A stretch of 32,579 nucleotides of DNA from a bacterium (GCA_046758365.1 JBHIAC010000023.1:1-32579), one strand, 5' to 3'. Positions 251 through 13,647 are shown, numbered from the stretch's first letter. The notes: generated from the sequence alone by a model not told the origin. Numbers and translations: made by a program.

Positions 251-381
251 GTATAACAATTGTTTGGAGCGGATGGTGGAGTTTGAGTGCTCTCGGTTGC
301 TTTTGGAGATTTGCAAAGCTCAATCTTGCTCAGTCAGTTAGAAGTTGTTAAACTCACCACCGCTCAAACATTTCGTTAGCT
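251..381 (+). mobile_element. Integron attC-like recombination site
   Basis: R'' GTATAAC, 5-nt spacer, L'' TTTGGAGC ... L' GCTCAAA, 6-nt spacer, R' GTTAGCT. L'' has one unpaired base, and the stem continues GG(A)TGGTG(G)AGTTT / AAACTCACCACC. 131 bp. Confidence 0.8.
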
Positions 382-625: not shown

Positions 626-823
626 TGGCTGCTTTGAAGCGGGTTATGATACCAAGATCGCTCTGTATATTTATGCTGACCCACGGATTAAAAAAGAATA
701 TTTATCCTTTTATTCAATTACTAATTGGGACAAATGTCCATAAGGATTGTGTGTTCAGAATAAACATCCAGAACAATCGGACTCGGAAGAACCTTAAATT
801 ATAAATACCATTAAGGTAAACGT

Positions 824-1684
824 CTACATGTTATTTGTCTCATTTAAAAAATTCACTAAAGCATCTTTCCAAAAGATCATTTGATCCATTTTGATAGCCT
901 TTAGGTTGTGATTTTCTAATACACTGTAAATAGGTCTCTTAACTGTCATTGGAAAATCACTCACACTGCAAGGCTGGAGTGTTGCTTCTAATTTTAATGT
1001 TTCAAAAATAACCTTAGCAAATTCATACCAAGAACACCCCCCTTGACAGGTCATGTGGTAAAGGCCAAAGGCATCAGTCTGAATTAATGAGTAGGTATTT
1101 TTTGAAATCTCTACCGCAGAAGTTGGGGTTAGTATTTCATCGTTCACTACTGTAACTTCTGGTCTTTCCCTGGAGGCTTTAATCATGGTCGTTATAAAAT
1201 TACCACCTTTGGCCCGACAGGGAACTTTACCATATATTCCAGAAACTCTAATGATGAAATAATTATTACAATTATTCATGATCAAATGTTCACCGTTTAA
1301 CTTTGTTAAGCCATAGATATTCAAAGGGTTAGGCTTATCATCCTCAATATAAGGAGATTTTTTTAGCCCATCGAAAACGTAGTCCGTGCTAAAGTGAACT
1401 AATTTAAAATCAAGATCATTTGATACCTTGGAAAGATTTAATGCTCCTAATCCATTAATTTTAAATGAAAGTATTGGATTTTCCTCACATTTCGAAACCT
1501 GGTGGTATGCAGCCGTATTAATAACTACTTGAGGTTTAACCCTCTCTAATGTGTTCTTAACATTATCAATATCAGAAATCTCAAAATCCTGATGCGTAAG
1601 AGATATTACTAAATATTTTTGTGAGAAAATCTCACAAATTTCCGTCCCGAGCTGACCATTAGCCCCTATTACCGCGACTTTCAA
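824..1684 (-). CDS. rmlD: dTDP-4-dehydrorhamnose reductase family protein
   Basis: GANGQLG, STDYVFDG, P.NIYGLTK and RP.YS motifs. Confidence 0.9.
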   Translation of the reverse strand: MKVAVIGANGQLGTEICEIFSQKYLVISLTHQDFEISDIDNVKNTLERVKPQVVINTAAYHQVSKCEENPILSFKINGLGALNLSKVSNDLDFKLVHFSTDYVFDGLKKSPYIEDDKPNPLNIYGLTKLNGEHLIMNNCNNYFIIRVSGIYGKVPCRAKGGNFITTMIKASRERPEVTVVNDEILTPTSAVEISKNTYSLIQTDAFGLYHMTCQGGCSWYEFAKVIFETLKLEATLQPCSVSDFPMTVKRPIYSVLENHNLKAIKMDQMIFWKDALVNFLNETNNM

Positions 1685-1733
1685 TATTAACCTCTATAAC
1701 TATTTTAATTCAAGGTTGAGTAAACTCGGAAAA

Positions 1734-1835
1734 AATTCAAAAGCCAACCTTCTTACAAAATACAAAAAAAGTTGATTTTCAATAGGTTATACTAAATGCA
1801 AACTAAACTTTAAATTATGAGAAGGTTAGCTTTTT
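1734..1835. repeat. Dispersed MITE-like inverted-repeat element, copy 1
   Basis: Arms AAAAGCCAACCTTCT (1739-1753) and AGAAGGTTAGCTTTT (1820-1834). A second copy lies in the opposite orientation at 12644-12718. Confidence 0.75.
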
Positions 1836-2800
1836 GCACCATAGTCAAGGTTTAAAGATTTAAATATTTCAATATTATAGTAACCAGGATTATCTAAATC
1901 TTTAAATTTTTCAAAATTAGCAATTAAGTCTTTTACAATAGAATCTATGTCATGTCTTGGTTTAAAACTCAGGACATTTCTGGCTTTTTCAAGACTAACT
2001 TTATAATTTCTAATATCTTGTACATGCTTAATTTTAAGTATGATGTTTGAGTCTAAATTTTCTTCTATGCCAGATTTTACAAGATCTCCAATCTCACCTA
2101 AAGTGTAATTGCCAGAAGCAACATTAAAAATACCAGAAATCATTTCATTCGCTTCGATGGCTCTTATATATGCACTGATAGCATCTTGTATGCTAAGAAT
2201 GGGTCTCCAGATAGCTGGATTATTAACCGTTATTACTCCGTCTTGCATGGCGTTCTTGAACATGGTGTTTACTACTAAATCTAAGCGCATTCTTGGACTA
2301 TAACCACATACCGTGCCTTGCCTAAGACAAATAACTGAAAAATTTTTATCAATCATTTGCATTACAGCCTGTTCACCTTGAAGTTTGGAGATACCATACG
2401 GATAATTAGAAACGGCCGGTGAATTCTCATCGTAAAGTTCATTTTCTGTGTAGCCATATACCGAGCAAGAATCTGCATAAATAAATCTTTTCAGTCCTGC
2501 CTGTTTTGCAATATAACAAAGATAGGCCGGTGCCGCAGCGTTATAAATGAAATTTTTACTTGGTGAAAATTCAGCCATCGGATCGTTGGATAATCCAGCC
2601 AGAAAAATTACTTGCTCGTACTTCTTAATATCCGTACTAGAAAGTTCAAAAATATCTTTTTTGATTCTTTCTACATCTTTGGGAAGATGATCTCCAAACC
2701 AGAATAAATCCACTACATCAACTTTGTAACCTCTTTCTAATAGCTTCGGAATAAGAGCGGAGCCAATGTATCCCCCGCCCCCTGCAATAAACAACTGCAT
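1826..2800 (-). CDS. NAD-dependent nucleotide-sugar epimerase/dehydratase (extended SDR)
   Basis: GGGGYIG Rossmann motif, SCSVYG, and catalytic YGISK motif. Confidence 0.9.
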   Translation of the reverse strand: MQLFIAGGGGYIGSALIPKLLERGYKVDVVDLFWFGDHLPKDVERIKKDIFELSSTDIKKYEQVIFLAGLSNDPMAEFSPSKNFIYNAAAPAYLCYIAKQAGLKRFIYADSCSVYGYTENELYDENSPAVSNYPYGISKLQGEQAVMQMIDKNFSVICLRQGTVCGYSPRMRLDLVVNTMFKNAMQDGVITVNNPAIWRPILSIQDAISAYIRAIEANEMISGIFNVASGNYTLGEIGDLVKSGIEENLDSNIILKIKHVQDIRNYKVSLEKARNVLSFKPRHDIDSIVKDLIANFEKFKDLDNPGYYNIEIFKSLNLDYGAKS

Positions 2801-3400
2801 TTATAGTCCTTTCATTTTTGATTGATTGGTAGGATTATATTGAAAATTATCAGACTCTGGCAATTTCAGCCAATCAGCAAACGTATATGCTTTACTATCT
2901 TTTTCAGAAATTATTGGATTTGTGATTGGCCAGTCAATACCAATATCAGGATCATTCCAACGAATTCCTGATTCACAATTCTTATTATAGATCCCAGTAC
3001 ATTTATATTGAATTTCTGCAAAATCCGTTAAAACGCAAAACCCTCTGGCAAAGTTAGCTGGGGCCCAGATTTGCTTTTTATTTTCTGCTGAGACAACGGT
3101 GCCAAACCATTTTCCCAAAGTCGGTGAACCTTTTCGAATATCAACGGCCACCAGAAATGCAGCACCATAAGTAACACGCATAAGTTTACCCATAGGAGGA
3201 TCCCATTGAAAATGTAAACCTCTTATAACATTTTTTACCGATCGAGAATGATTATCCTGAACAAATTCATAGGGCAAGCCTAACCCTTCAAATTGATCGG
3301 CTCTAAAAATTTCCATAAAAAATCCTCGTTCATCCTCAAAAACTTCAGGTTTAAGAACAACTATTTCATCGAGGTGGACAGATTCAATCTTTATCTCCAT
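2801..3400 (-). CDS. rmlC: dTDP-4-dehydrorhamnose 3,5-epimerase
   Basis: DERGFF, QDNHSRS, RGLHFQ, DIRKGSPT, YKCT and I.W.DPDIGIDWP motifs. Confidence 0.95.
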   Translation of the reverse strand: MEIKIESVHLDEIVVLKPEVFEDERGFFMEIFRADQFEGLGLPYEFVQDNHSRSVKNVIRGLHFQWDPPMGKLMRVTYGAAFLVAVDIRKGSPTLGKWFGTVVSAENKKQIWAPANFARGFCVLTDFAEIQYKCTGIYNKNCESGIRWNDPDIGIDWPITNPIISEKDSKAYTFADWLKLPESDNFQYNPTNQSKMKGL

Positions 3401-3419
3401 TAATATCTCCTTATAAAAA

Positions 3420-4493
3420 TCAACAGGCCTTAACCAGTTCTGAATAAGTCTTTTTACCTTTCAAAAAATACTCAATTACAATACTTTTAGGATAAAGAAA
3501 TTTTTTTATTTCATTGTCCGATACTACTCGTCTATTTTGAGCATCTTTTCTCTTTTTAAAAACAAGTTTTATGTGAAAAACAAGCCACCAATATGCTTTA
3601 ACTATCGCATAAAATGTTTTAAAGTCAAATTTAATCAATGATATTAAAAGTGCAAGTAAATCTAATAGGTAACGAATAAAAAGTATTTTAACAAGATTTT
3701 TTCTTCCAAGATTTTTAAAAAGCATAAAAACACTGTTTCTAAAATTCCAATATATTTTCATAAAGCTATCAGGTTTTATGGTGGCCCCGGCATAATGATA
3801 TATTTTTGCCGAAGGGATTACTTTTAATTTATAACCTACCAAGTGCAATCTCCAGCATAAATCGATTTCTTCCATGTGATGGACAAAATCTTCATCAAGA
3901 ACATTACTTTTCTGAAGGGCCTCGGCTCGTAGGAACATAGCGGCACCACTGGTCCAGAACACTTCAACCTCATCGTCATATTGACCATGATCTTTTTCGA
4001 TTGTGTTAAACACTCGGCCTCTCAAATAGGGATAACCGTATTTATCCATGAACCCGCCCGAAGCTCCAGCATACTCAAAATATCCCGCATCTATCATTGA
4101 CAAAATTTTTGGCTGAAGGGCCCCTATTTTTTCATCAGCTTCAGCGGCTTTAACTAAAAATTCAAGCCAGTTCGGTTCTACTTTCACATCATTATTCAAA
4201 AGAACAAAATATTTTCCATTTGCTTTTTCAAAAGAAATATTATAGGCTCTACTATAACCACCATTGTAATCCGTCTGGATAATTTTTACCTGTTTATAAT
4301 TTTGTTTCGTATAAAATACACTATCATCGGTAGAGTTATTATCAAGCAGTATAATCTCAAAATTAGGATATGAAGTTTTGACAAGCGATCGAAAACATGC
4401 TTCGAGAAATTTTCTCCCGTTATAGTTTAACACAATTACACTAACCAAAGGATGATTCGTTCTGTTTAACTCATGGGAATCTTCTGACTTCAT
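3420..4493 (-). CDS. GT2 family glycosyltransferase (WbbL/rhamnosyltransferase-like)
   Basis: IVLNYNG, DNNSTD, LLNND, SGAAM and EEIDLCWR motifs. Confidence 0.9.
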   Translation of the reverse strand: MKSEDSHELNRTNHPLVSVIVLNYNGRKFLEACFRSLVKTSYPNFEIILLDNNSTDDSVFYTKQNYKQVKIIQTDYNGGYSRAYNISFEKANGKYFVLLNNDVKVEPNWLEFLVKAAEADEKIGALQPKILSMIDAGYFEYAGASGGFMDKYGYPYLRGRVFNTIEKDHGQYDDEVEVFWTSGAAMFLRAEALQKSNVLDEDFVHHMEEIDLCWRLHLVGYKLKVIPSAKIYHYAGATIKPDSFMKIYWNFRNSVFMLFKNLGRKNLVKILFIRYLLDLLALLISLIKFDFKTFYAIVKAYWWLVFHIKLVFKKRKDAQNRRVVSDNEIKKFLYPKSIVIEYFLKGKKTYSELVKAC

Positions 4494-4518
4494 TGGTAAA
4501 TTTCTTAATCATTTAAGC

Positions 4519-4647
4519 ACATAACGCTCGGTTTCACCTGCGAAGGGCTTTTGTAAACCTAAGTAAATGAATAGTAAAAAGTTTGATAACTAGCAAAACT
4601 AACTCAACAAACGAGTGCCCTTCATCAGGTGGAAACCAAAGTTATAC
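4519..4647 (-). mobile_element. Integron attC-like recombination site
   Basis: On the minus strand: R'' GTATAAC, spacer TTTGG, L'' TTTCCACC (extra C), TG(A)TGAAGGGC ... GCCCTTCGCA, L' GGTGAAA, spacer CCGAGC, R' GTTATGT. Canonical 5/6-nt spacers and two extrahelical bases. 129 bp. Confidence 0.85.
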
Positions 4648-4746
4648 AGCCAAAAGAAAATTCAATGATATTATTCAATATTATTGTGTCTTCTAGTTTA
4701 CGACCATGTCCCAACGCCAAGTTTTTCAAAGATGTTGTCTCAGTGT

Positions 4747-4779
4747 AAACCTTCCAGGTCTTTGAGACCTGGAAGGTTT
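4747..4779. repeat. REP palindrome downstream of RAYT
   Basis: AAACCTTCCAGGTCT-TTG-AGACCTGGAAGGTTT, perfect 15-bp arms. Confidence 0.95.
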
Positions 4780-5396
4780 TATTTCTCGTCTATCAGATAA
4801 TTTTCACAGCCCCTGAAATCAATCCTACATCTTTGGTGGAATTCGATGTACCCCTGTTCGTCCCCAAATATATCAATAACTTCCTTTTTCATCAATTTGC
4901 TTGGTCGTTTATTGAGAATCTTCATATAGGAACTCCATTTATACTCCTCCAGGCTCGGACAAATATTATGGTGAACGGGATTATTGTGAATATAGTAAAT
5001 CATCTGGAGTAAATACTTTTCTTCGTCTATCAAGATTCTTTTGAAATTCTTTTGAAAAAGACTACCAACTCTATGCTCCTGCTTATTGATGGCTTTGGTA
5101 TAAGCATTGAAGAAATTAGAATATGCTTGAATAATCGGACAGCGGTGGAGCTGCTCCAAACCTTCCAGGTTTTGAAAACCTGGAAGGTCTTCCTTGATTC
5201 TAATCAGGAAATGAAAGTGGTTTAACAGCAAGCAAAAAACATAAACATCCAAAAAATCGCTGAGGTATTCATCAAACTTAACTAAGAAATATCTATAGTT
5301 TTCCTCGTTAAAGAAGATCCTCTCCTTATTGTTGCCTCTATTATAAATATGATAAAATCGCCCTTTTTCAAAGGGAGCAGAATGCTTGTGGGACAT
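4779..5396 (-). CDS. REP-associated tyrosine transposase (RAYT, IS200/Y1 HUH family)
   Basis: YHIYNRGNN, NHFH (HUH), GSLFQ..F, YIHNNPV and Y.WSSY motifs; flanked by REP palindromes. Confidence 0.92.
   Translation of the reverse strand: MSHKHSAPFEKGRFYHIYNRGNNKERIFFNEENYRYFLVKFDEYLSDFLDVYVFCLLLNHFHFLIRIKEDLPGFQNLEGLEQLHRCPIIQAYSNFFNAYTKAINKQEHRVGSLFQKNFKRILIDEEKYLLQMIYYIHNNPVHHNICPSLEEYKWSSYMKILNKRPSKLMKKEVIDIFGDEQGYIEFHQRCRIDFRGCENYLIDEK
5158..5190. repeat. REP palindrome in frame inside the RAYT gene
   Basis: AAACCTTCCAGGTTTT-G-AAAACCTGGAAGGTCT, translated as DLPGFQNLEGL. Confidence 0.92.
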
Positions 5397-5419
5397 ATCA
5401 AATTCCTTATTTAATAAAC

Positions 5420-5452
5420 AAACCTTCCAGGTCTCAAAGACCTGGAAGGTTA
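5420..5452. repeat. REP palindrome upstream of RAYT
   Basis: AAACCTTCCAGGTCT-CAA-AGACCTGGAAGGTTA, the reverse complement of 4747-4779 at 32/33 positions. Confidence 0.95.
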
Positions 5453-5465
5453 GGTTTTGAAGGCG

Positions 5466-8444
5466 CTATTCAAACTTAACCGGCCCCAATGTCTCATCCA
5501 ACCACTTATTAATAACCGGAACCCGCTCTTCTAATGGCGGGATGTGACCACCTTCAGTCAAAGTGAGCTGTTTCGGCTTACTGAGCAAATTGTAAAGCGG
5601 CACCACGCAAGTATTGACTGGTAATACTTCATCATGCTTACCGCTCAAAACTAACTTTGGTGGTTTGATATGGGGGACGAAGTTTATTGGATTCACCTCG
5701 GGAAGTCTTTGCTGGTCGCGTTCTGTAAGGCCGCCTCCAATAAAAATCACTGATCGGTAACGATTCTCAACGGATGGGAAAATAACTCCCCTGTGTGCAC
5801 CCCCGCTAAGACCAAGAAAAGCCAGTTTATCTATATCGATATCATCGCGAGTGGCTAAATAATCAAGTCCGATGCTAAATTCCGTCGCAGAACGAACCAT
5901 GCCTTCGCGATATCTTACAGTGTTGATTTCACGCCGCCATAATACATCTGACCCTAATTCTTCCCGTTCCAGCGCACCCCACCATACAACAGCCAATACT
6001 GCCCTCCCAGACTTCATTTGAGGTGCCAGTAGCCATTCCGTATGTTCAGAAGTCGTTCTGGCATAAAAGACATCATCACCGGCGACAAAGTTAATGCATT
6101 GGAAAGGTTTTGTCGCTCGTTTGGGAAGATACAAGTAAGCAATGATTCGATCGCCGCGTATACCCTCAATCGTTACCTTTTCTCTTGTCCAATGTACAGT
6201 TTCTATGGTTTCAATAATTTGGGCATTCAAGGGTTTCTTATCATATTTATAATGACTTAAAAAGTTTTTAAATGACGTTTCGTCAACTGGTGAGTAAGAA
6301 GGAGTCCGCCGTTCCAGATCTATACGCATTGCGCCTTGATCGCCAGTGGCTTCCGCAGAATTACGGACACAGCGAAATCCAAGCGAACTTGATGCATAGA
6401 AACCAGGGAATACCCCATAACGATAAGCCACGTAGTTAGGGTCTTTCCAGGAGCCTCCAGTCGTGGCGTATCCACCGTCAATTTCGTTAAGACACAACTC
6501 TTTAACATTTCCAACCATATTGTAACAGCCATAAGGGCTAATGCCAAATTCATAACTATCCACAGGCTTTGTATCTTTTCCGTTAAAATTTGCACGGTGC
6601 TCAATCCTTTCCTTCGGCCTCACAAATCCCCACGGCATGACCACACCGCTAAAATGTGTCAATCTGCGATCTCTGGATGCCTTTTCCCATTGAAAGATGG
6701 TCGGCAAACTCTTGCCAACAAATTCAGCATACGCAGCAGCCTCGTACCAGGTGATGTGAGTGACCGGGTGATTTTGTTTCCCTTCGGGGTATTCTTGATT
6801 AACCCAGTTGTGGGGACCAGGAAGCCCGGTTCGATCCGTAAAATGCTTGATCGCTTCTTCCCAGGAAAGTTGTTTGCTGTCCTTGATGAATGGGTGTTTC
6901 CAATATGTTTTTTTTAAATAGCCACCGGCATCAACAAACTCCTTATATTCTTTCAAGCTGACCTCGTATCGGTCGATAAAATAATCATCCAGATGAACTT
7001 GATCAGTTGTCGGGGTGTCATAGCTAACCAACTTATAATCTCCGCCTGGAACAAAAACCATATTCTCAGGAGCTTTATCGGATTCAATAAGTTTAACCTC
7101 AAGTTTAACGTCCGGAGAACCACCTATAAAAACATAAGCCCGGTTTAATTCACTTGAAGCAATACGCTCCACTGGCACGTAACCTTCTTTTTGGAGATAC
7201 ACCTTATAAGAACCCCTGGCAATGCGCGTATCGGTGATGGGGGTGATGCCAACATACTCTTTATCCGGGAAATTGCCTTGCTCATCTGGTGCAAATCTTT
7301 TCAAGAATACACGCGCACTTTCTGGTTCTGAGACAACGGTGAGTTTATCAGAGATAATGGGCAGTAACCGCATGAGAGTCGAATCGCTCTTAAGGCGCTT
7401 TTCTGCTTGAACCGCTAAATCATACGACTCAGCGTATTTTCCAGCTTGAGCCAGGTTCTCTATTTTTGGGAGGAGTGCTTTGGCCCGCTGAAGTTTCACA
7501 CGCTGTTGATACGGCACGAACACAGCCAATGCAAGGATAAGAAATAGGCTTAACGTGGCAATAGCATATTTAGGCTGTTTCAAAAGACTCATCAGTACCT
7601 TTAGATTGATTACTTTTGTCTCAGGGACTATGTCCGCACCGCGTAACTTTTTAAACTGTTGTAAAAGTTCATCGGCTGATTCAAATCGTTTTTCCCGATC
7701 TTTTTCTAAAGCACGCAATATTACATTCTGTAATTCTTCTGGCACATCTCGATCTAAAGGCATCGGTTCTTCATTAAAAATCGAATAGATGACCGCCTGT
7801 TCATAATCTCCTTTGAAAGGCAGCTCCCCGGTCAGCAACTCATATAGCACTACGCCCAGCGACCAGATGTCCGTGAGATGATCAACGACCTCACCACGTG
7901 CCTGTTCAGGCGACATGTAAGCAGTCGTTCCTAAAGTTGTGCTGGTTTTGGTGAGTTTTGTGCGCCCAGCCAACTTGGCTAGACCAAAGTCCATGATCTT
8001 AACTTGACCAGTCTCTGTAATCATAATGTTGGAGCTCTTAATGTCGCGATGCACGATGTCTTTTTTGTGAGCCACTTGCAAGCCTTCAACGATTTGGATG
8101 GCGTAATCTAGAACCTTCCTAAGGTTTAAAACCTTAGGAAGGTTGGCGGATATAATTTCCTGCAAGGTTTGACCCTTGATGTATTCCATAACGATAAACG
8201 TCTCATTATCAGCCTCCTCAATGGCGTAAATCGTTGCGATGTTCGGATGATTAAGGGCCGCAGCAGCTTGCGCTTCGTGTTCGAAGCGTTTCCGTTCCTC
8301 AGCATGAGCTGCAATCTGGTGCGGCAGGAATTTGATAGCCACCTCACGTCTGAGTTTCATGTCCTCAGCCTTGTAGACCACGCCCATACCGCCCTCACCG
8401 AGCTTCTCAAGGATTTTGTAGTGGGATATGGTTTTGCCAATCAT
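5466..8444 (-). CDS. Membrane Ser/Thr protein kinase fused to PEGA-like, FGE-sulfatase (SUMF1-type) and alpha/beta-hydrolase domains
   Basis: Kinase motifs GEGGMG, VAIK, HRDIKSSN, DFG and YMSPE; TM helix YAIATLSLFLILALAVFV; PEGA-like VVSEPESARVF...GITP; FGE motifs P....W.EAAAYA, LPT..QWEKA, GNV.E and GFRCVR; hydrolase triad GLSGG / GKHD / GGH. Confidence 0.92.
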   Translation of the reverse strand: MIGKTISHYKILEKLGEGGMGVVYKAEDMKLRREVAIKFLPHQIAAHAEERKRFEHEAQAAAALNHPNIATIYAIEEADNETFIVMEYIKGQTLQEIISANLPKVLNLRKVLDYAIQIVEGLQVAHKKDIVHRDIKSSNIMITETGQVKIMDFGLAKLAGRTKLTKTSTTLGTTAYMSPEQARGEVVDHLTDIWSLGVVLYELLTGELPFKGDYEQAVIYSIFNEEPMPLDRDVPEELQNVILRALEKDREKRFESADELLQQFKKLRGADIVPETKVINLKVLMSLLKQPKYAIATLSLFLILALAVFVPYQQRVKLQRAKALLPKIENLAQAGKYAESYDLAVQAEKRLKSDSTLMRLLPIISDKLTVVSEPESARVFLKRFAPDEQGNFPDKEYVGITPITDTRIARGSYKVYLQKEGYVPVERIASSELNRAYVFIGGSPDVKLEVKLIESDKAPENMVFVPGGDYKLVSYDTPTTDQVHLDDYFIDRYEVSLKEYKEFVDAGGYLKKTYWKHPFIKDSKQLSWEEAIKHFTDRTGLPGPHNWVNQEYPEGKQNHPVTHITWYEAAAYAEFVGKSLPTIFQWEKASRDRRLTHFSGVVMPWGFVRPKERIEHRANFNGKDTKPVDSYEFGISPYGCYNMVGNVKELCLNEIDGGYATTGGSWKDPNYVAYRYGVFPGFYASSSLGFRCVRNSAEATGDQGAMRIDLERRTPSYSPVDETSFKNFLSHYKYDKKPLNAQIIETIETVHWTREKVTIEGIRGDRIIAYLYLPKRATKPFQCINFVAGDDVFYARTTSEHTEWLLAPQMKSGRAVLAVVWWGALEREELGSDVLWRREINTVRYREGMVRSATEFSIGLDYLATRDDIDIDKLAFLGLSGGAHRGVIFPSVENRYRSVIFIGGGLTERDQQRLPEVNPINFVPHIKPPKLVLSGKHDEVLPVNTCVVPLYNLLSKPKQLTLTEGGHIPPLEERVPVINKWLDETLGPVKFE
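8112..8144. repeat. REP-like palindrome in frame within the kinase domain
   Basis: AACCTTCCTAAGGTTT-A-AAACCTTAGGAAGGTT, perfect 16-bp arms, exactly 11 codons (NLPKVLNLRKV). Confidence 0.9.
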
Positions 8445-8547
8445 GGTAACCTTGTAGTCTGAAGAATGCTTGTCATTTCAAATAAGTACATCTCTACTTG
8501 CGGTATAACTTCTATTTTATTTAACCTTTTTGATTTAAAACTTTTCC

Positions 8548-8712
8548 CTAAAATGAATCTGCTTCATCAATGAGCATGATGGGAATATCATCTTTAATGT
8601 CGTATTTAAGGCGACACTTATGACATATGAGCTTTTGATTCTCCTTATCATACTCTAAATCGCCTTTGCATTTTGGACAGGCTAATATGTCAAGAAGTTC
8701 TTTGTCCAGCAT
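8548..8712 (-). CDS. Trm112/YcaR (UPF0434) family protein, 54 aa
   Basis: Hand translation [54 protein letters not shown], with an AGGAG SD upstream. Below the ORF-track cutoff. Confidence 0.93.
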
Positions 8713-8755
8713 AGTCACTTCTCCTTATTTTAATTGATGTCTAAGATGGAATATA

Positions 8756-9712
8756 CTATTCTTTTAAAAAACCCATCTTTCCATATTTTTCAATTCGGGC
8801 TTCGATGAGTTGGTCAGAAGGAATTTTTTCCAACTCGTTTAATTCTAAATGAATGCTTTCCTTTAAAATTTTGGCTGCTTCATCATAGTTTTGATGAGCA
8901 CTTCCAAGTGGTTCTTTTATTATTTTATCAATGACTCCCATTTTCAGAAGATCGGGAGCGGTGAGCTTCATGGCTTCAGCAGCTTGTTCAGATTTGGTGC
9001 TGTCTCGCCATAGAATCGCTGCACATCCTTCTGGAGAAATAACTGAATACCAGGTATTTTCCATCATCAAAACCCGATCCCCCACACCAATACCCAAAGC
9101 CCCACCGGAAGCGCCCTCACCAATAATTACAATCACAATGGGAACAGGTAAATGAGACATTTCAAACAAGTTTCGAGCGATGGCTTCAGCTTGCCCCCTC
9201 TCTTCAGCTCCGATACCCGGAAAAGCACCCGGAGTATCAATTAGACTAATAATCGGACGATTAAATTTAGCGGCTAATTTCATGATTCGCATCGCCTTTC
9301 GATAGCCTTCTGGATGGGGCATACCAAAATTCCGGTGGAGTTTCTCTTTGGTCGTCCTTCCTTTTTGATGTCCAACAAAAATGACTTTTTCTCCATCCAT
9401 GATGCCTATGCCACCCACAATGGCTGGATCATCTCCAAAAGCGCGATCCCCATGAAGTTCTAAAAAGCTGCTGGTCATCCGCTCTATGTAGTCTAAAGTA
9501 TAGGGTCGTTGGGGATGCCGGGCCAATTGCACTCTCTGCCAGCGGGTCAATTTAGAGTAAATTTCAGCGCGAAGTTTTTCCGCTTTTTGTTCCAATCGCG
9601 CAATTTCCTCTGAGATTTCTACCTTCTCATTCTCTGAGTATTCCTTCATTTCTTTAATCCGCTTCTCAAGCTCTACAACAGGCTTTTCGAATTCTAAAAC
9701 AAATCCATTCAT
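8756..9712 (-). CDS. accA: Acetyl-CoA carboxylase carboxyltransferase subunit alpha
   Basis: [40 protein letters not shown] and [10 protein letters not shown] motifs. Confidence 0.98.
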
Positions 9713-9719
9713 AGTTAAC

Positions 9720-11879
9720 TTAAATTTTGAATAGTGCTTTAAAAATTATCTCTAAATCCAAAAGTGGGGAATAATTTTTCATATAATAAAGATGATACTT
9801 CTCTTTTTCGGCTTGGGTTAGAGGTCGATGGCTATTGACTTGCACCAAACCAGTTAATCCTGGCTTAAGGTACATTTCCATTTGCGGCGAAAATTTAGAG
9901 TTTTCTTCAACCTCTACAATTTCCCTTCCCACTAAGCTTAAATCACCTTTTAAAATTGACCAAAGATACGGAATTCTTTTGATAAAATTTGGACTATTAT
10001 CCGCAAATTCATAAAGAGCTATTGTTCTATTTTGTTCACCATAAACGATTCGCTTTTTTATTTTAACAGAAGTCAAAAATCTTTTATATAAAAAAATCGG
10101 TATGGATAAAATTAAACCACTAATTGCCAAAACAGCATCAAAAACTCTTTTAATAAATCTATGGCGACTTTGATAGAGTTTATATTCGATTTCCAAAAGC
10201 GGCATATCATCCATTCTTTCAATGGAAGCTTTACCAATAATTACTTCAAGATTACTGGGCACTAATTTAAAATTTACCCTTTGTTTTTTGGAACGTGAAA
10301 TAATCCCTAAGATTTGATCATAAGAAAGCCGATTGGTAGAAAATATAACCTCTTGAATTTTTTCTTCACAAATTATTGAATCTAAATCTTCTATGGTCCC
10401 TAACACTTTAAGGCTGTGGTAAGTTTGTCCTTGGTCTTTGCCATTTATACTTACAAGGCCAGCAATTCGATACCCCGCATCGATTTGCGAGTTAAATTTC
10501 TCAAGTAATTTTTCTCCTGAGGTAAAATCACCAACGATTACCGTTTTTCTTCCAAGGAGGGTTTTACCTAAAGTTCCTTTAAATGGCATTAAACTAAGAC
10601 GGGGTAAAAGCTTTATTACGAGTCTCCATCCAGGAATAACTATTAAACTTAGGACACTTGCTAACAGAACTACTAAGCGAGAAAAAGCATACTGCTTAAA
10701 GAAATAAGTCAGACTTGCATTGAATAAAAACCCGACCAAGATGGCTGATCCAGCTTTGGATGAGGAGAATTTATGTTTATGGTAACAGCCAAAAAGGCTG
10801 AGGGTTGCCATCCAAATTAAGGAATAAGCAATGTCAACCGGGATAAAAGAGCGCAAACGGGCAAAACTTTCAAATCTAATGTAAATGGCCAGAATTAATG
10901 AAAGTGTCAATAAAATCAAATCTGTTATAGGGACTGAGAGGGTCACGATAATCTTTTTCAAAAAAGAGAACCCAGCTCTGAGCCAGATGGCTACTAAAAG
11001 CAGCCAATAGGGTATTAAAAGATACTTCCGCTTGAAATGTTTTTGAACAAAAAGTGCCATGGCTTGATAAAAAACCTTGAGGTTGTCAAACTGGCTGCGT
11101 TTGGAACATTCACCTTTAAAATGAATAATTTGTGTTCCCGAGAAATAACGTACTTTCCAACCTTTTTCACGAATTCGGTAACACCAATCCAGATCCTCGC
11201 CATACAAAAAAAAGGATTCATCGAGATAACCGACCTCTTCTAATATTTTACGCTGAATCATCATAAAGGAACCGGATATGGCCTCTACTTCGTAAGTAAG
11301 ATTCGAGTCGAGATAGGATAAGTTGTATTTGCCAAAAATTTTGCTTTTAGGAAAAAGATGGCTTAACCCAATCATTTTGGTAAAGGCCACCCAAGGGGTC
11401 GGGTAACTTCTTCGACAGGCCAATTGTAAGGTTCCGTCCGGATTTAGAATCTTGCATCCTAACATTCCTGTATCAGGATGTTTTTTAGAAAAGTCCAGCA
11501 TGGTTGAAAAAGTATCTTCTTGAACGATGGTGTCTGGATTTAATAGAGCAAGATATTTACCCTTGGCCTTTCGCAGTCCCTGATTCGATGCTTTAGCAAA
11601 TCCAAGGTTCTTTGAATTCACTAACAGATGAACGTCTGGATACCGCTGCTGAATAAGTTGAGCACTTCCGTCTCGAGAGGCATTATCAACAACAATAATT
11701 TCAGAAGAAATTCCTCTCAAGGCTTTTTTAACAGAAATTAAGGCTTGTTCCAAAAATTCCTTAACATTATAATTTACAATAATAACTGAAAGCTCAATTT
11801 CCTGATGGTTGGAATTTGTGTGGTCTATATCGATTCTAGTTAATGGATTAGATATTTGAGTATTAGTTTTGCGGCTCAT
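9720..11879 (-). CDS. GT2 glycosyltransferase fused to TM helices, a CoA-binding-like domain and a bacterial sugar-transferase-like domain
   Basis: N-terminal IIVNYN, DNAS.DG, LLNPD and YGEDLDWC; hydrophobic middle; C-terminal [20 protein letters not shown] and LDLEI. Confidence 0.88.
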
Positions 11880-11882
11880 CTT

Positions 11883-12605
11883 CTAGTTTATTTTACCAAA
11901 TAGACTTAATAATCTAAGCTTCCAAACCATCCAGGCAGCTTCCCGCATGACTTTGCGTGACATTTTAGAGTTGCCTTTTATACGATCTACAAATATAATT
12001 GGAATTTCACAAATTTTAAAGTTTTTTTTCCAAGCTTTAAAATTAACTTCAATCTGGAAGGAATAACCATCGCTGGAAATATTATCTAAATCAATATTTT
12101 CTAAAACATCTCGCCTAAAACATTTAAAACCACTGGTACAATCTCGAAGGGGCAGGCCGGTAATCACACGAGTATACCAATTTGCGCCCAGACTTAACAA
12201 TAACCGCGATAAAGGCCAATTTATGACATTTACGCCTGTTATATATCGTGATCCAATGACGAGATCAAAGGATTTTGCTTTTTCTAAAAAATTAGGAATT
12301 TCATTGGGATCATGAGAAAGATCTGCATCCATCTCAAAAATATAATCAAAACTATTCTCAATAGCAAATTTAAATCCTTCTACATAGGCTGTTCCGAGAC
12401 CTAACTTACCCGATCTTTGAATCAAATTAATACGTGAATCAGACTTACAGATTTTTGTAACAATCTTGCCGGTTTGGTCCGGTGAATTGTCATCAACGAC
12501 TAAAATAAAAATATTAGGAATATCTAAGTCGAAAATCTTGGAAATAATAATTTCAATGTTTTCGGCTTCATTGTAAGTTGGTATGATTATTAGAATTTTA
12601 TTCAT
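11883..12605 (-). CDS. Polyprenol-monophosphomannose synthase (DPM1/Ppm1-like GT2)
   Basis: IPTYNE, VDDNSPD, KLGLGTAY, MDADLSH, GSRY, DCTSGF and GYSFQIE motifs. Confidence 0.92.
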   Translation of the reverse strand: MNKILIIIPTYNEAENIEIIISKIFDLDIPNIFILVVDDNSPDQTGKIVTKICKSDSRINLIQRSGKLGLGTAYVEGFKFAIENSFDYIFEMDADLSHDPNEIPNFLEKAKSFDLVIGSRYITGVNVINWPLSRLLLSLGANWYTRVITGLPLRDCTSGFKCFRRDVLENIDLDNISSDGYSFQIEVNFKAWKKNFKICEIPIIFVDRIKGNSKMSRKVMREAAWMVWKLRLLSLFGKIN

Positions 12606-12643
12606 CCTTGAAGGTTTTGTCTTTGAACATTTGACATTAGCAT

Positions 12644-12718
12644 AAAAAGCTAACCTTCACATAAATAAATGTTTAGTCTGGATCTATCTAATATTAAAAG
12701 AAGGTTAGCTTTTGAATT
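12644..12718. repeat. Dispersed MITE-like inverted-repeat element, copy 2
   Basis: Perfect 14-bp arms AAAAGCTAACCTTC (12645-12658) and GAAGGTTAGCTTTT (12700-12713). Its reverse complement matches 1734-1835 in both arms and part of the interior. Confidence 0.8.
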
Positions 12719-12723
12719 ACAGT

Positions 12724-13647
12724 TCATTTTGAAGATAATTCTAACTGACATTTGAAAGTTTTTAATCCCGCTTTGACGTCCTTCATCTCTATATCAAGTT
12801 CTTTTTTAGCTTTTTTTGTAATAAAGCTCGAGTTTAAAGGACGAGGAGCTTTTTGTTTCAAATCAATCGTCCCGATTGGTTTAATGAGATTTGTGTCAAA
12901 ACCAAACACTTCAGCTAACTTTAAAGCGAAATGGTAGCGGTCAATACATTCTGAGCCCACAATGTGATAGAGGCCTGTTTTTCTTAATTCCACGATTTTT
13001 CGAATGGCTAGAGCTAAATCATCAGCTAAGGTGGGGTGACCCATTTGATCATCTACAATGGTTACTAGCTCCCCTTTCGATAACTTTTCAACCAACCAGG
13101 TGGCAAAATTTAGTCGGATATTTTTGCCAATGCCGTAAAGTATCATCGTTCGTACAATGGTATAATCAATACCACTAATAATGAGTGCATTTTCACCAGC
13201 CAATTTAGAACGACCATAATAGCCTAAAGGGTTAGGTTTGGATTCTTCTGAATAATCACCTTTCACGCCATCAAATACATAATCGGTAGAGATATAAATA
13301 AGTAATGCGCCAACGCTTCTTCCTGCCTGGGCTAAATTCTTTATACCAGTTACATTCACTTTCCAGCAATCTTCTTTTTCTTCTTCACATCCATCAACGT
13401 CGGTGTAAGCAGCAGCATTAATGATAAAATTTGGCTTAAAGGTGCGAATGATTTCTTGCACATCTTTCCTTTTAGTTATATCACAAGGTGTGTATTGAAA
13501 TTCATCTAATTTAAAAGCTGGACTCTTTTTTAGATCGATTCCCAAAATTTCATAACTATCAATAAAAGTTGCAACAAGCTTCTGACCGAGCAATCCATTG
13601 GATCCAGCAATTAAGATTTTATTTTTTAATAGTTTTAAATTTGCCAT
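12724..13647 (-). CDS. rmlD: dTDP-4-dehydrorhamnose reductase family protein (second copy)
   Basis: GSNGLLG, AAAYTDVD, STDYVFDG, YGRSK, DQ.G.PT and APRP motifs. Confidence 0.9.
   Translation of the reverse strand: MANLKLLKNKILIAGSNGLLGQKLVATFIDSYEILGIDLKKSPAFKLDEFQYTPCDITKRKDVQEIIRTFKPNFIINAAAYTDVDGCEEEKEDCWKVNVTGIKNLAQAGRSVGALLIYISTDYVFDGVKGDYSEESKPNPLGYYGRSKLAGENALIISGIDYTIVRTMILYGIGKNIRLNFATWLVEKLSKGELVTIVDDQMGHPTLADDLALAIRKIVELRKTGLYHIVGSECIDRYHFALKLAEVFGFDTNLIKPIGTIDLKQKAPRPLNSSFITKKAKKELDIEMKDVKAGLKTFKCQLELSSK

Follow-up and report, generated by a model that had tools for sequence, protein, structure and literature searches.

Insertion of an integron cassette at a secondary site is a classical observation, for example for aadB in RSF1010. 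Sedentary chromosomal integrons of the Vibrio VCR type carry homogeneous attC sites of ~130 nt. Here, a locus is described that can be compared with both. It lies in a stretch of bacterial DNA of 32,579 nt (GCA_046758365.1, JBHIAC010000023.1:1-32579; hereafter the window), which is the entire contig C23 (32.6 kb) of the bin G000, and consists of a 3984-bp element on the minus strand (4525–8508) with the gene for a 992-aa receptor-type Ser/Thr kinase, a gene resembling those of REP-associated tyrosine transposases (RAYT; REP, repetitive extragenic palindrome) and an attC site. The element is very probably a cassette inserted by an integron integrase (IntI) between a trm112-like gene and a GT2 glycosyltransferase gene.

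Loot et al. (bioRxiv 10.1101/2022.09.11.507474) describe that the integrase inserts cassettes at genomic G/WT sites (attC x attG; the slash marks the crossover). According to the same preprint, the inserted cassettes can be expressed from nearby promoters and excised again, and they are found in databases as single attC sites lacking an integron integrase (SALINs). The reaction of IntI1 was demonstrated there in E. coli and V. cholerae, and SALINs were counted in RefSeq. The locus in the window resembles a SALIN in the sense of that preprint, since it is a cassette with a single attC outside attI or an array, G/WT is the only conserved feature of its target and no integrase is found nearby. 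It also shares its orientation with the flanking host genes, a possible promoter source. The only other attC of the window (251–381) is on the opposite strand at a distance of 4.1 kb, and the unoccupied target site was recovered in a relative, G007. Compared with the cases described by Loot et al., the locus differs in being a natural event with an unoccupied site in a sister genome, in belonging to an uncultured Calditrichia-like lineage and in its far larger cassette.

Classical secondary-site insertions are mentioned in the discussion of the same preprint. Like the element in the window, they place one cassette precisely at a GTT-like site, and in the classical cases a promoter of the host drives its expression. 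Those are small resistance cassettes on plasmids, whereas the present one is chromosomal, 4 kb long and encodes a signalling protein. With VCR-type integrons, the lineage shares a lineage-wide attC family with dozens of copies per genome; in contrast to them, the cassettes measure 3.1–4.0 kb where both ends were checked and are sometimes multigene. Cury et al. 2016 (PMC4889954) give ~2 kb for the largest cassettes known. The mechanism (SALIN/attG) is already published. What is new here is a before/after pair found in nature, the lineage, and cassette sizes of at least 3 kb. The evidence supports the locus as a well-documented SALIN or secondary-site cassette of unusual size and cargo. The process is known, yet it is rarely seen in nature with the unoccupied site kept in a close relative: attG insertion was shown in the laboratory, and natural cases were inferred mainly from counts of isolated attCs. 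In the present case, one natural site can be compared base by base in its occupied and its unoccupied form, in an uncultured lineage far from the Proteobacteria of the laboratory work.

Insertion site and cassette boundaries

In the closest relative, G007 (AccA 92% identical), the genes for a GT2/transferase, accA, trm112, GT2, rmlC, an epimerase and rmlD are colinear with those of the window (L049, 82–92% protein identity), and the gap between trm112 and GT2 is ~110 nt long, without kinase, RAYT or any 4-kb insert. A second relative, G001, has accA beside GT2-rml and likewise neither kinase nor insert. On the upstream side, the insertion is flanked by the trm112-like gene (8548–8718, minus strand, 56 aa, Pfam Trm112p 5.6e-16, 91% identity to the G007 gene) and on the downstream side by the GT2 glycosyltransferase gene (3420–4493, minus strand, Pfam Glycos_transf_2 1.4e-26, 82% identity to the G007 gene), which is the first gene of the rml block. 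An earlier note, made by a model from the DNA of the window, had placed an insertion between these two genes, and the colinear, insert-free order in G007 bears this out.

The right end was determined by local alignment of the flank. The alignment starts at window position 4525, the G of R', which corresponds to the G of GTTATGC in G007 (L049:2412), and leaves the attC wholly unaligned. This GTTATGC is carried by the G007 spacer, AAAAG/TTATGCACTTAAATGATTA (also given as AAAAG/TTATGCAC). The spacer carries ...ATATAAAAGTTATGCACTTAAATGATTA, which is essentially the empty junction that the earlier note had predicted for relatives, and the breakpoint is found at the GTT (4525) and not elsewhere. The three junction sequences are ...GTAAATATAAAAGTTATGCACTTAAATGATTATGCC... 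for the G007 spacer, ...TAAATAAAATAGAAG/TTATACCGC... for the left and ...CCGAGCG/TTATGTGCTTAAATGATTAAG... for the right side of the insertion in the window.

At the left junction (8500–8512, minus strand, GAAG/TTATACCGC), homology to G007 is clear through trm112 plus ~25 nt. The minus strand reads GTTATACCGC from 8509 to 8500, which is complementary to R'' of the attC at 7/7 positions and at 9/10 over ten bases, while the resident R', GTTATGT, reaches only 5/7; these figures agree with the earlier reading. The seven bases concerned, GTTATAC (8509–8503), are the exact complement of R'' GTATAAC. A lone 7-mer is expected by chance ~0.5 times in 9 kb, so the match counts only because it is sited at a breakpoint defined independently via relatives. 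Another relative, G014, has a homologous kinase cassette directly after an attC with the R' GTTATACCGC; these ten bases recur unchanged in the window, and the cassette start TTATACCGC is identical. The left end is fixed at 8509/8508 by the complementarity to R'' together with this identical start. In a three-way MAFFT alignment and in the local alignment, the left flank was spuriously matched to the AT-rich cassette leader; both were set aside in favour of the conserved end of trm112, the GTTAT common to the sequences and the cassette start in G014.

With the right end fixed by G007 and the left end by the R'' complement and G014, 4525–8508 is one cassette at a GTT secondary site of the attG type; its first bases are the TT that follows the crossover G (8509), and its last base is the G of R' (4525). 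The extent of 3984 bp given in the earlier note thus holds. Logan contigs were available from four runs (X1–X4) of a single study, labelled hydrothermal vent metagenome. The right junction is bridged by contigs of X1–X4 and the left one by contigs of X2 and X3, with 0–1 mismatches, and therefore the window contig is not an assembly chimera.

Characterisation of the attC site

The attC comprises 129 nt on the minus strand (4519–4647). Read from 4647 to 4519, it consists of R'' GTATAAC, the 5-nt spacer TTTGG, L'' TTTC[C]ACCTG[A]TGAAGGGC with an unpaired C and A (in square brackets), a variable loop, L' GCCCTTCG-CAGGTG-AAA, the 6-nt spacer CCGAGC and R' GTTATGT. R'' together with the three bases upstream of it reads GCTGTATAAC. 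The core consensus of attC sites is RYYYAAC for R'' and GTTRRRY for R'. GTATAAC and GTTATGT agree with it at 6/7 positions each, and the AAC and GTT are invariant here as in all 14 family members used for modelling. As single-stranded DNA, the hairpin has a folding energy of -19.9 kcal/mol (z = -3.6), and 0 of 200 shuffled sequences were as stable. The kinase and RAYT genes are located upstream of the site on the same strand and are directed towards it.

A covariance model (R1), specific for the lineage, was built from an alignment (A1) of 14 other attCs of the bin. It scored the site with 79.5 bits (E 1.6e-15) over its full length (1–133), whereas the opposite strand reached 8.4 bits and the top non-attC match in the window had E 1.4. 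Exact matches between the site and other parts of the bin are 14 nt long at most, which makes this score independent of the training set. In L'', the unpaired C and A correspond to the two unpaired columns of the family (16 and 24), and the spacers are 5 and 6 nt long. The site is a genuine attC, as the earlier note had read it, and the covariance scoring that the note had asked for came out in its favour with the lineage-specific model.

The attC family of the lineage

The training sequences came from a descriptor scan of the bin for AAC...GTT ends and arm complementarity, which found 150 sites, 17 of them with TAAC...GTTA ends and a length of 115–140 nt. Three of the 17 were left out before modelling, namely the site under study, C115 (a perfect palindrome without spacer) and C38 (6-nt arm imbalance). 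RNAalifold predicted 21 pairs for the remaining 14 attCs, 14 of them with compensatory changes, and columns 16 and 24 of the 5' arm were always unpaired. At a required R'/R'' complementarity of 6/7, the scan missed the site at 4519–4647 because its R' is chimeric after the insertion; relaxation to 5/7 recovered it.

R1 gave 38 matches in the bin at E up to 0.01, the 14 training sites included. Many of them occur as two or three per small contig, as expected because arrays break assemblies. The family was found in 31/41 related genomes with up to 62 matches in one; its members are ~123–135 nt long and have a partly conserved central region. The bin contains 12 consecutive same-strand attC pairs, two of which are cut by contig ends. 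In 6/10 of the others, all seven bases of the downstream R'' are complementary to the R' that precedes it. Such complementarity between an R'' and the preceding R' is a signature of cassette boundaries, and the cassette in the window follows this rule.

The second attC of the window (251–381, plus strand) escaped the descriptor scan and was found by the covariance model only (97.7 bits, E 1.9e-19). It is 91% identical to a training sequence (C36:2980-3290), and its score is therefore not independent. Upstream of it lies a kinase-family paralogue, of which the window contains the C-terminal end (1–167). The two attCs of the window are inverted, lie 4.1 kb apart and bracket the GT2-rml block.

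Proposed mechanism of insertion

It is proposed, with a probability of about 0.88, that 4525–8508 is an integron cassette inserted by IntI into an attG-type GTT site of the trm112-GT2 spacer. A circular cassette, made up of kinase and attC with or without the RAYT unit, would fold the bottom strand of its attC, as published IntI biochemistry suggests. IntI would then recombine the folded attC with the double-stranded chromosomal site ...AAG/TTATG.... On the left, this would join the target G to the TTATAC of the cassette, so that the G at 8509 would stem from the target and TTATAC would be the remainder of the original R' of the cassette. On the right, the ...CCGAGCG of the cassette would be joined to the target TTATGTGCTT. 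Most likely, the RAYT gene and its hairpin repeats joined the cassette in a separate event, at a point between the stop codon of the kinase and the attC. The cassette has the same orientation as accA-trm112-GT2-rml and could therefore be readable by read-through from the host operon.

Several points weigh against this proposal. The attC model is lineage-specific, and 4/10 consecutive attC pairs break the R'' rule. No complete intI was found in the bin (95% complete, 318 contigs), where no TIGR02249 match exceeded the cut-off. Comparison alone bounds the left breakpoint to ~25 nt only, given that the AT-rich spacer has diverged and is ~40 nt longer in G007. Neither a joint skipping 4525–8508 nor a circle junction or other excised form was seen among the Logan contigs of the four runs, which drop rare variants and are uninformative on excision. 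The polarity follows by parsimony from two relatives, and a precise excision by IntI in the G007 line would give the same picture as an insertion here. None of 53 kinase loci of a wider genome collection gave a match to R1, a result that, with a lineage-specific model, does not amount to an absence of attCs there. Finally, the bin is 8% contaminated and one of the training contigs, C259, is 99.5% G007-like, so that 'the same genome' may stand for two related organisms.

A second pair of occupied and unoccupied sites was sought. The pepP-pgk flank of a further kinase-family cassette (on C36) had no counterpart in G007, which is 76% complete. At a cassette locus of G007 (L172), the counterpart in the bin is a different 1.6-kb segment on C122, and no unoccupied site was found.

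Alternative explanations

The present 3984 bp are probably a composite, in which an original cassette of ~3.2 kb (kinase and attC) was later invaded by the RAYT unit. This refines the insertion proposal rather than competing with it. The unit measures 704 bp (4748–5451, minus strand) and consists of a 205-aa open reading frame (ORF; 4779–5396) between two copies of a 32-nt repeat (I1; 4748–4779 and 5420–5451), which are 100% complementary to each other and each palindromic. The ORF matched the entire NF047646 profile (REP-associated tyrosine transposase) with 51.9 bits (E 7e-14) and so fell short of the cut-off of 80 bits; its match to Pfam Y1_Tnp was not significant (E 0.28). Motifs of RAYT proteins, H-F-H and further on YIHNNP, can be recognised in it on inspection. 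The arrangement of a small HUH-type ORF between palindromic repeats in inverted orientation is that of RAYT/REP systems; it differs from them in the score below cut-off and in the repeats, as the only three copies in the bin all lie in the cassette and one of them is in frame inside the RAYT gene.

The unit is read as a later invader because the homologous cassettes of G013 and G014 have ~20 nt between the kinase stop codon and R'', whereas the window has 818 nt. The perfectly complementary repeats on both sides of the ORF and the distribution of its homologues, which occur with 1–4 copies in 18/41 genomes in unrelated contexts, are consistent with this reading. On the other hand, 100 nt (4648–4747) are left over when the unit is subtracted, there is no second copy of the unit to define its ends, and a cassette of G012 also has ~680 nt, of other sequence, between kinase and attC. 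The leftover stretch (minus strand) contains no ORF of more than 39 aa and has no similarity to the genome or the fetched loci. The earlier suggestion of a smaller cassette that was invaded later thus seems apt for the RAYT part alone; no support was obtained for its accompanying view of 4648–4746 as a gene tail.

The third repeat copy (5160–5188) lies just after the H-x-H motif of the RAYT ORF. The exact palindrome has three copies in the bin, all within 4748–5451, and 0–4 copies in the four relatives searched; it is therefore not an amplified REP family. The closest RAYT homologue (G018, 68% identical) has a palindrome at the equivalent place (L158:1707-1739); the stems of the two compare as CCTTGCAGG...CCTGCAAGG against CCTTCCAGG...CCTGGAAGG. 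Because the stem is changed on both arms, the hairpin inside the gene seems to be maintained. A variant of the flanking repeat forms a perfect palindrome of 16+16 nt, AACCTTCCTAAGGTTT and AAACCTTAGGAAGGTT, within the kinase gene (8112–8144, minus strand, repeat I11). It is in frame, and the residues encoded, NLPKVLNLRKV, belong to a variable kinase-domain loop. This loop is 3–4 residues shorter in 7/9 aligned homologues, and the homologue from G019 has a 21-residue insertion there.

According to a second explanation, the insert is what survives of a resident array that once spanned the region (clustered attC sites without an integron integrase, CALIN), with the two attCs of the window as its relics. 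The second attC at 251–381 and the history of the neighbourhood speak for it. A C-terminal fragment of 88 aa is encoded on contig C204 (2099–2362, L103). Integron integrase is its best-matching family (106 bits, compared with 83 for XerC), and it is 86% identical to a full-length IntI of G008. The gene scpA is located 1.2 kb downstream of this remnant, and in G007 it directly follows rmlD. Since the intI remnant lies beside a gene that neighbours rmlD in G007, a decayed integron probably exists between rmlD (window position 824) and scpA, within a few kb just past the left end of the window. The cassette ending at 381 would be its last cassette, as judged from synteny and orientation in contigs that are not joined in the assembly. 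Nevertheless, the two attCs differ in strand, and between them lie four ordinary genes of the rhamnose-pathway and GT2 kinds, colinear with those of G007. The unoccupied site of G007 has its GTT exactly at the cassette end. A relic of a resident array is hence improbable, and insertion of the cassette into the spacer is retained.

The lineage possesses the enzyme, as IntI matches to TIGR02249 above the cut-off were obtained in 16/41 genomes. On the window contig, neither TIGR02249 nor Phage_integrase nor any other tyrosine recombinase gave a match, which confirms that the window lacks an integrase, and no adjacent intI and attI as in a complete integron were found at the cassette. The search of the genome for intI that the earlier note had proposed yielded no complete gene but only the remnant on C204. 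As this is the only recognisable intI of the bin, the cassette can probably no longer move without an integrase provided in trans. The cassette can still be called solo, as the note did, but only as IntegronFinder uses the word, in that no other same-strand attC lies within 4 kb; the second attC at 251–381, the 38 matches in the bin and the intI remnant qualify the term.

It is still less likely that the RAYT, as an HUH transposase, or homologous or illegitimate recombination moved the 4-kb block with the attC as a passenger. Such a role would agree with the RAYT-like gene and its hairpin repeats inside the block. These repeats are internal, however, at 223 nt from the right and ~3 kb from the left end; both ends coincide with G/TT and the R' of the attC, and no direct or inverted repeats of other kinds were found at the block ends. 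A further reading takes the hairpin at 4519–4647 for a fortuitous palindrome or a terminator and the insert for plain lineage-specific DNA. It would fit the place of the hairpin at a gene 3' end, where terminators occur, and the lack of an attC family in Rfam (gathering thresholds for the entire window, E up to 10 for 4400–4800; chance miRNA and snoRNA matches on palindromes only). This reading is already contradicted by the E of 1.6e-15 with an independent attC model and by the register that the site keeps with 14 family members in its R'/R'' cores, the lengths of its spacers and its unpaired bases.

Kinase cargo and large cassettes

The kinase gene (5466–8444, minus strand) encodes 992 aa with a kinase domain, one hydrophobic segment, a PEGA domain, an FGE-sulfatase-like domain and a C-terminal region (Pfam Pkinase 3.3e-59, PEGA 3.6e-6, FGE-sulfatase 5.5e-32). 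The Pkinase match (PF00069) has 200.9 bits and covers positions 1–259 of 263, i.e. a full-length domain. The C-terminal region has weak similarity to alpha/beta-hydrolases, with every match below the cut-off.

Homologue loci from nine relatives (L010–L018), full-length or near full-length, were scanned with R1. Matches were obtained in three of them, G012, G013 and G014, all with kinases of ~980 aa. In G014, attC, a 979-aa kinase (43% identical) and attC follow each other on one strand as a cassette of ~3.1 kb, with ~20 nt from the stop codon to R''. The attC of G013 is situated 26 nt past the stop codon, and in G012 ~680 nt of other sequence separate kinase and attC. The closest homologues (54–59% identical; G002, G019 and G037) have no attC within 1.5 kb. 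Among the matches listed, G015:C4, G001:C420 and G009:C112 also have attCs upstream of kinase genes, at a distance of 35–75 nt. Kinase-domain matches occur on 15 contigs of the bin, two of which also carry an attC (the window contig and C36). These comparisons indicate that kinase and attC travel together, and the kinase is not the very unusual cargo for which the earlier note took it, as it recurs in the lineage.

The G013 kinase cassette (L016, G013:C300, 1–125) starts with A/TTATACCGC, and no attC is visible in the preceding 50 nt. Its attC (L016 3055–3184) ends with ...TTTCG/AACCCC, without GTT. These non-canonical junctions may reflect another secondary-site event. A third kinase-family cassette was found in the bin itself (G000 C36:434-3293, L090), in which the kinase domain is detectable only in its last third. 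Between the end of its attC and the convergent genes pepP-pgk lie 20 nt, and it may be another cassette outside an array.

Large cassettes are not restricted to kinases. A 3.6-kb cassette with three genes (C198:143-3771, L095) obeys the R'' rule and encodes a 7TMR-DISM/SpoIIE phosphatase, an ORF product without assigned function and a beta-lactamase-fold protein. On C173 (125–5285, L094), two attCs ~5.2 kb apart enclose four genes, for a glycine-betaine-type ABC permease/binding fusion, an ABC ATPase, an asparagine synthase and a product without assigned function; an undetected attC between them is possible.

The accepted size and content of cassettes are stretched by the 3984-bp cassette with its 992-aa receptor kinase, by the 3.1-kb cassette of G014 and by the 3.6-kb three-gene cassette of the bin. 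Because cassettes this large exist, the default clustering distance of 4 kb for attCs in integron-finding software may split or miss arrays in such lineages. A wider, tentative idea is that in this vent-dwelling, Calditrichia-like family integrons might move cassettes of at least 3 kb, including whole receptor kinases and multigene units, and that escape to GTT sites in expressed housekeeping operons might regularly fix signalling genes and build an expanded kinase repertoire. If this were true, integron cassettes would not be limited to ~2 kb, and the attC x attG route would operate in nature well outside Proteobacteria.

Genomic setting

The bin G000 comprises 3.74 Mb on 318 contigs with 38% G+C, a completeness of 95% and a contamination of 8%. 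From ~800 to 13,600 of the window, the genes are uniformly on the minus strand and follow, as read on it, the order GT2/sugar-transferase fusion, accA (8756–9712, minus strand), Trm112-like gene, 992-aa kinase, 205-aa ORF, 129-nt hairpin, GT2, rmlC, epimerase and rmlD. The kinase gene has 45% G+C compared with 33–41% in the flanks. The best named relatives of the kinase belong to metagenome-assembled genomes labelled Caldithrix or Calditrichia; a full-text literature search for integrons with attC in Calditrichia found nothing.

The integron-adjacent regions of relatives (L075–L083, L087) yielded a single R1 match, of 61 nt, in L076. Concerning the composition of the bin, contig C259 (2683 bp) is 99.5% identical over its full span to G007 DNA (G007:C36, L172), while other orthologous regions are ~70–88% identical, and a different allele of the C259 locus is present on C122. 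Probably, therefore, either the bin includes contigs of another organism similar to G007 or a transfer took place very recently. Near its left end, the window contains a truncated subtilisin-like fragment (423–649) with 83% identity to C107. It is followed by a dispersed short repeat of ~120 nt (656–778), which has matches of 70–81% on at least seven other contigs.

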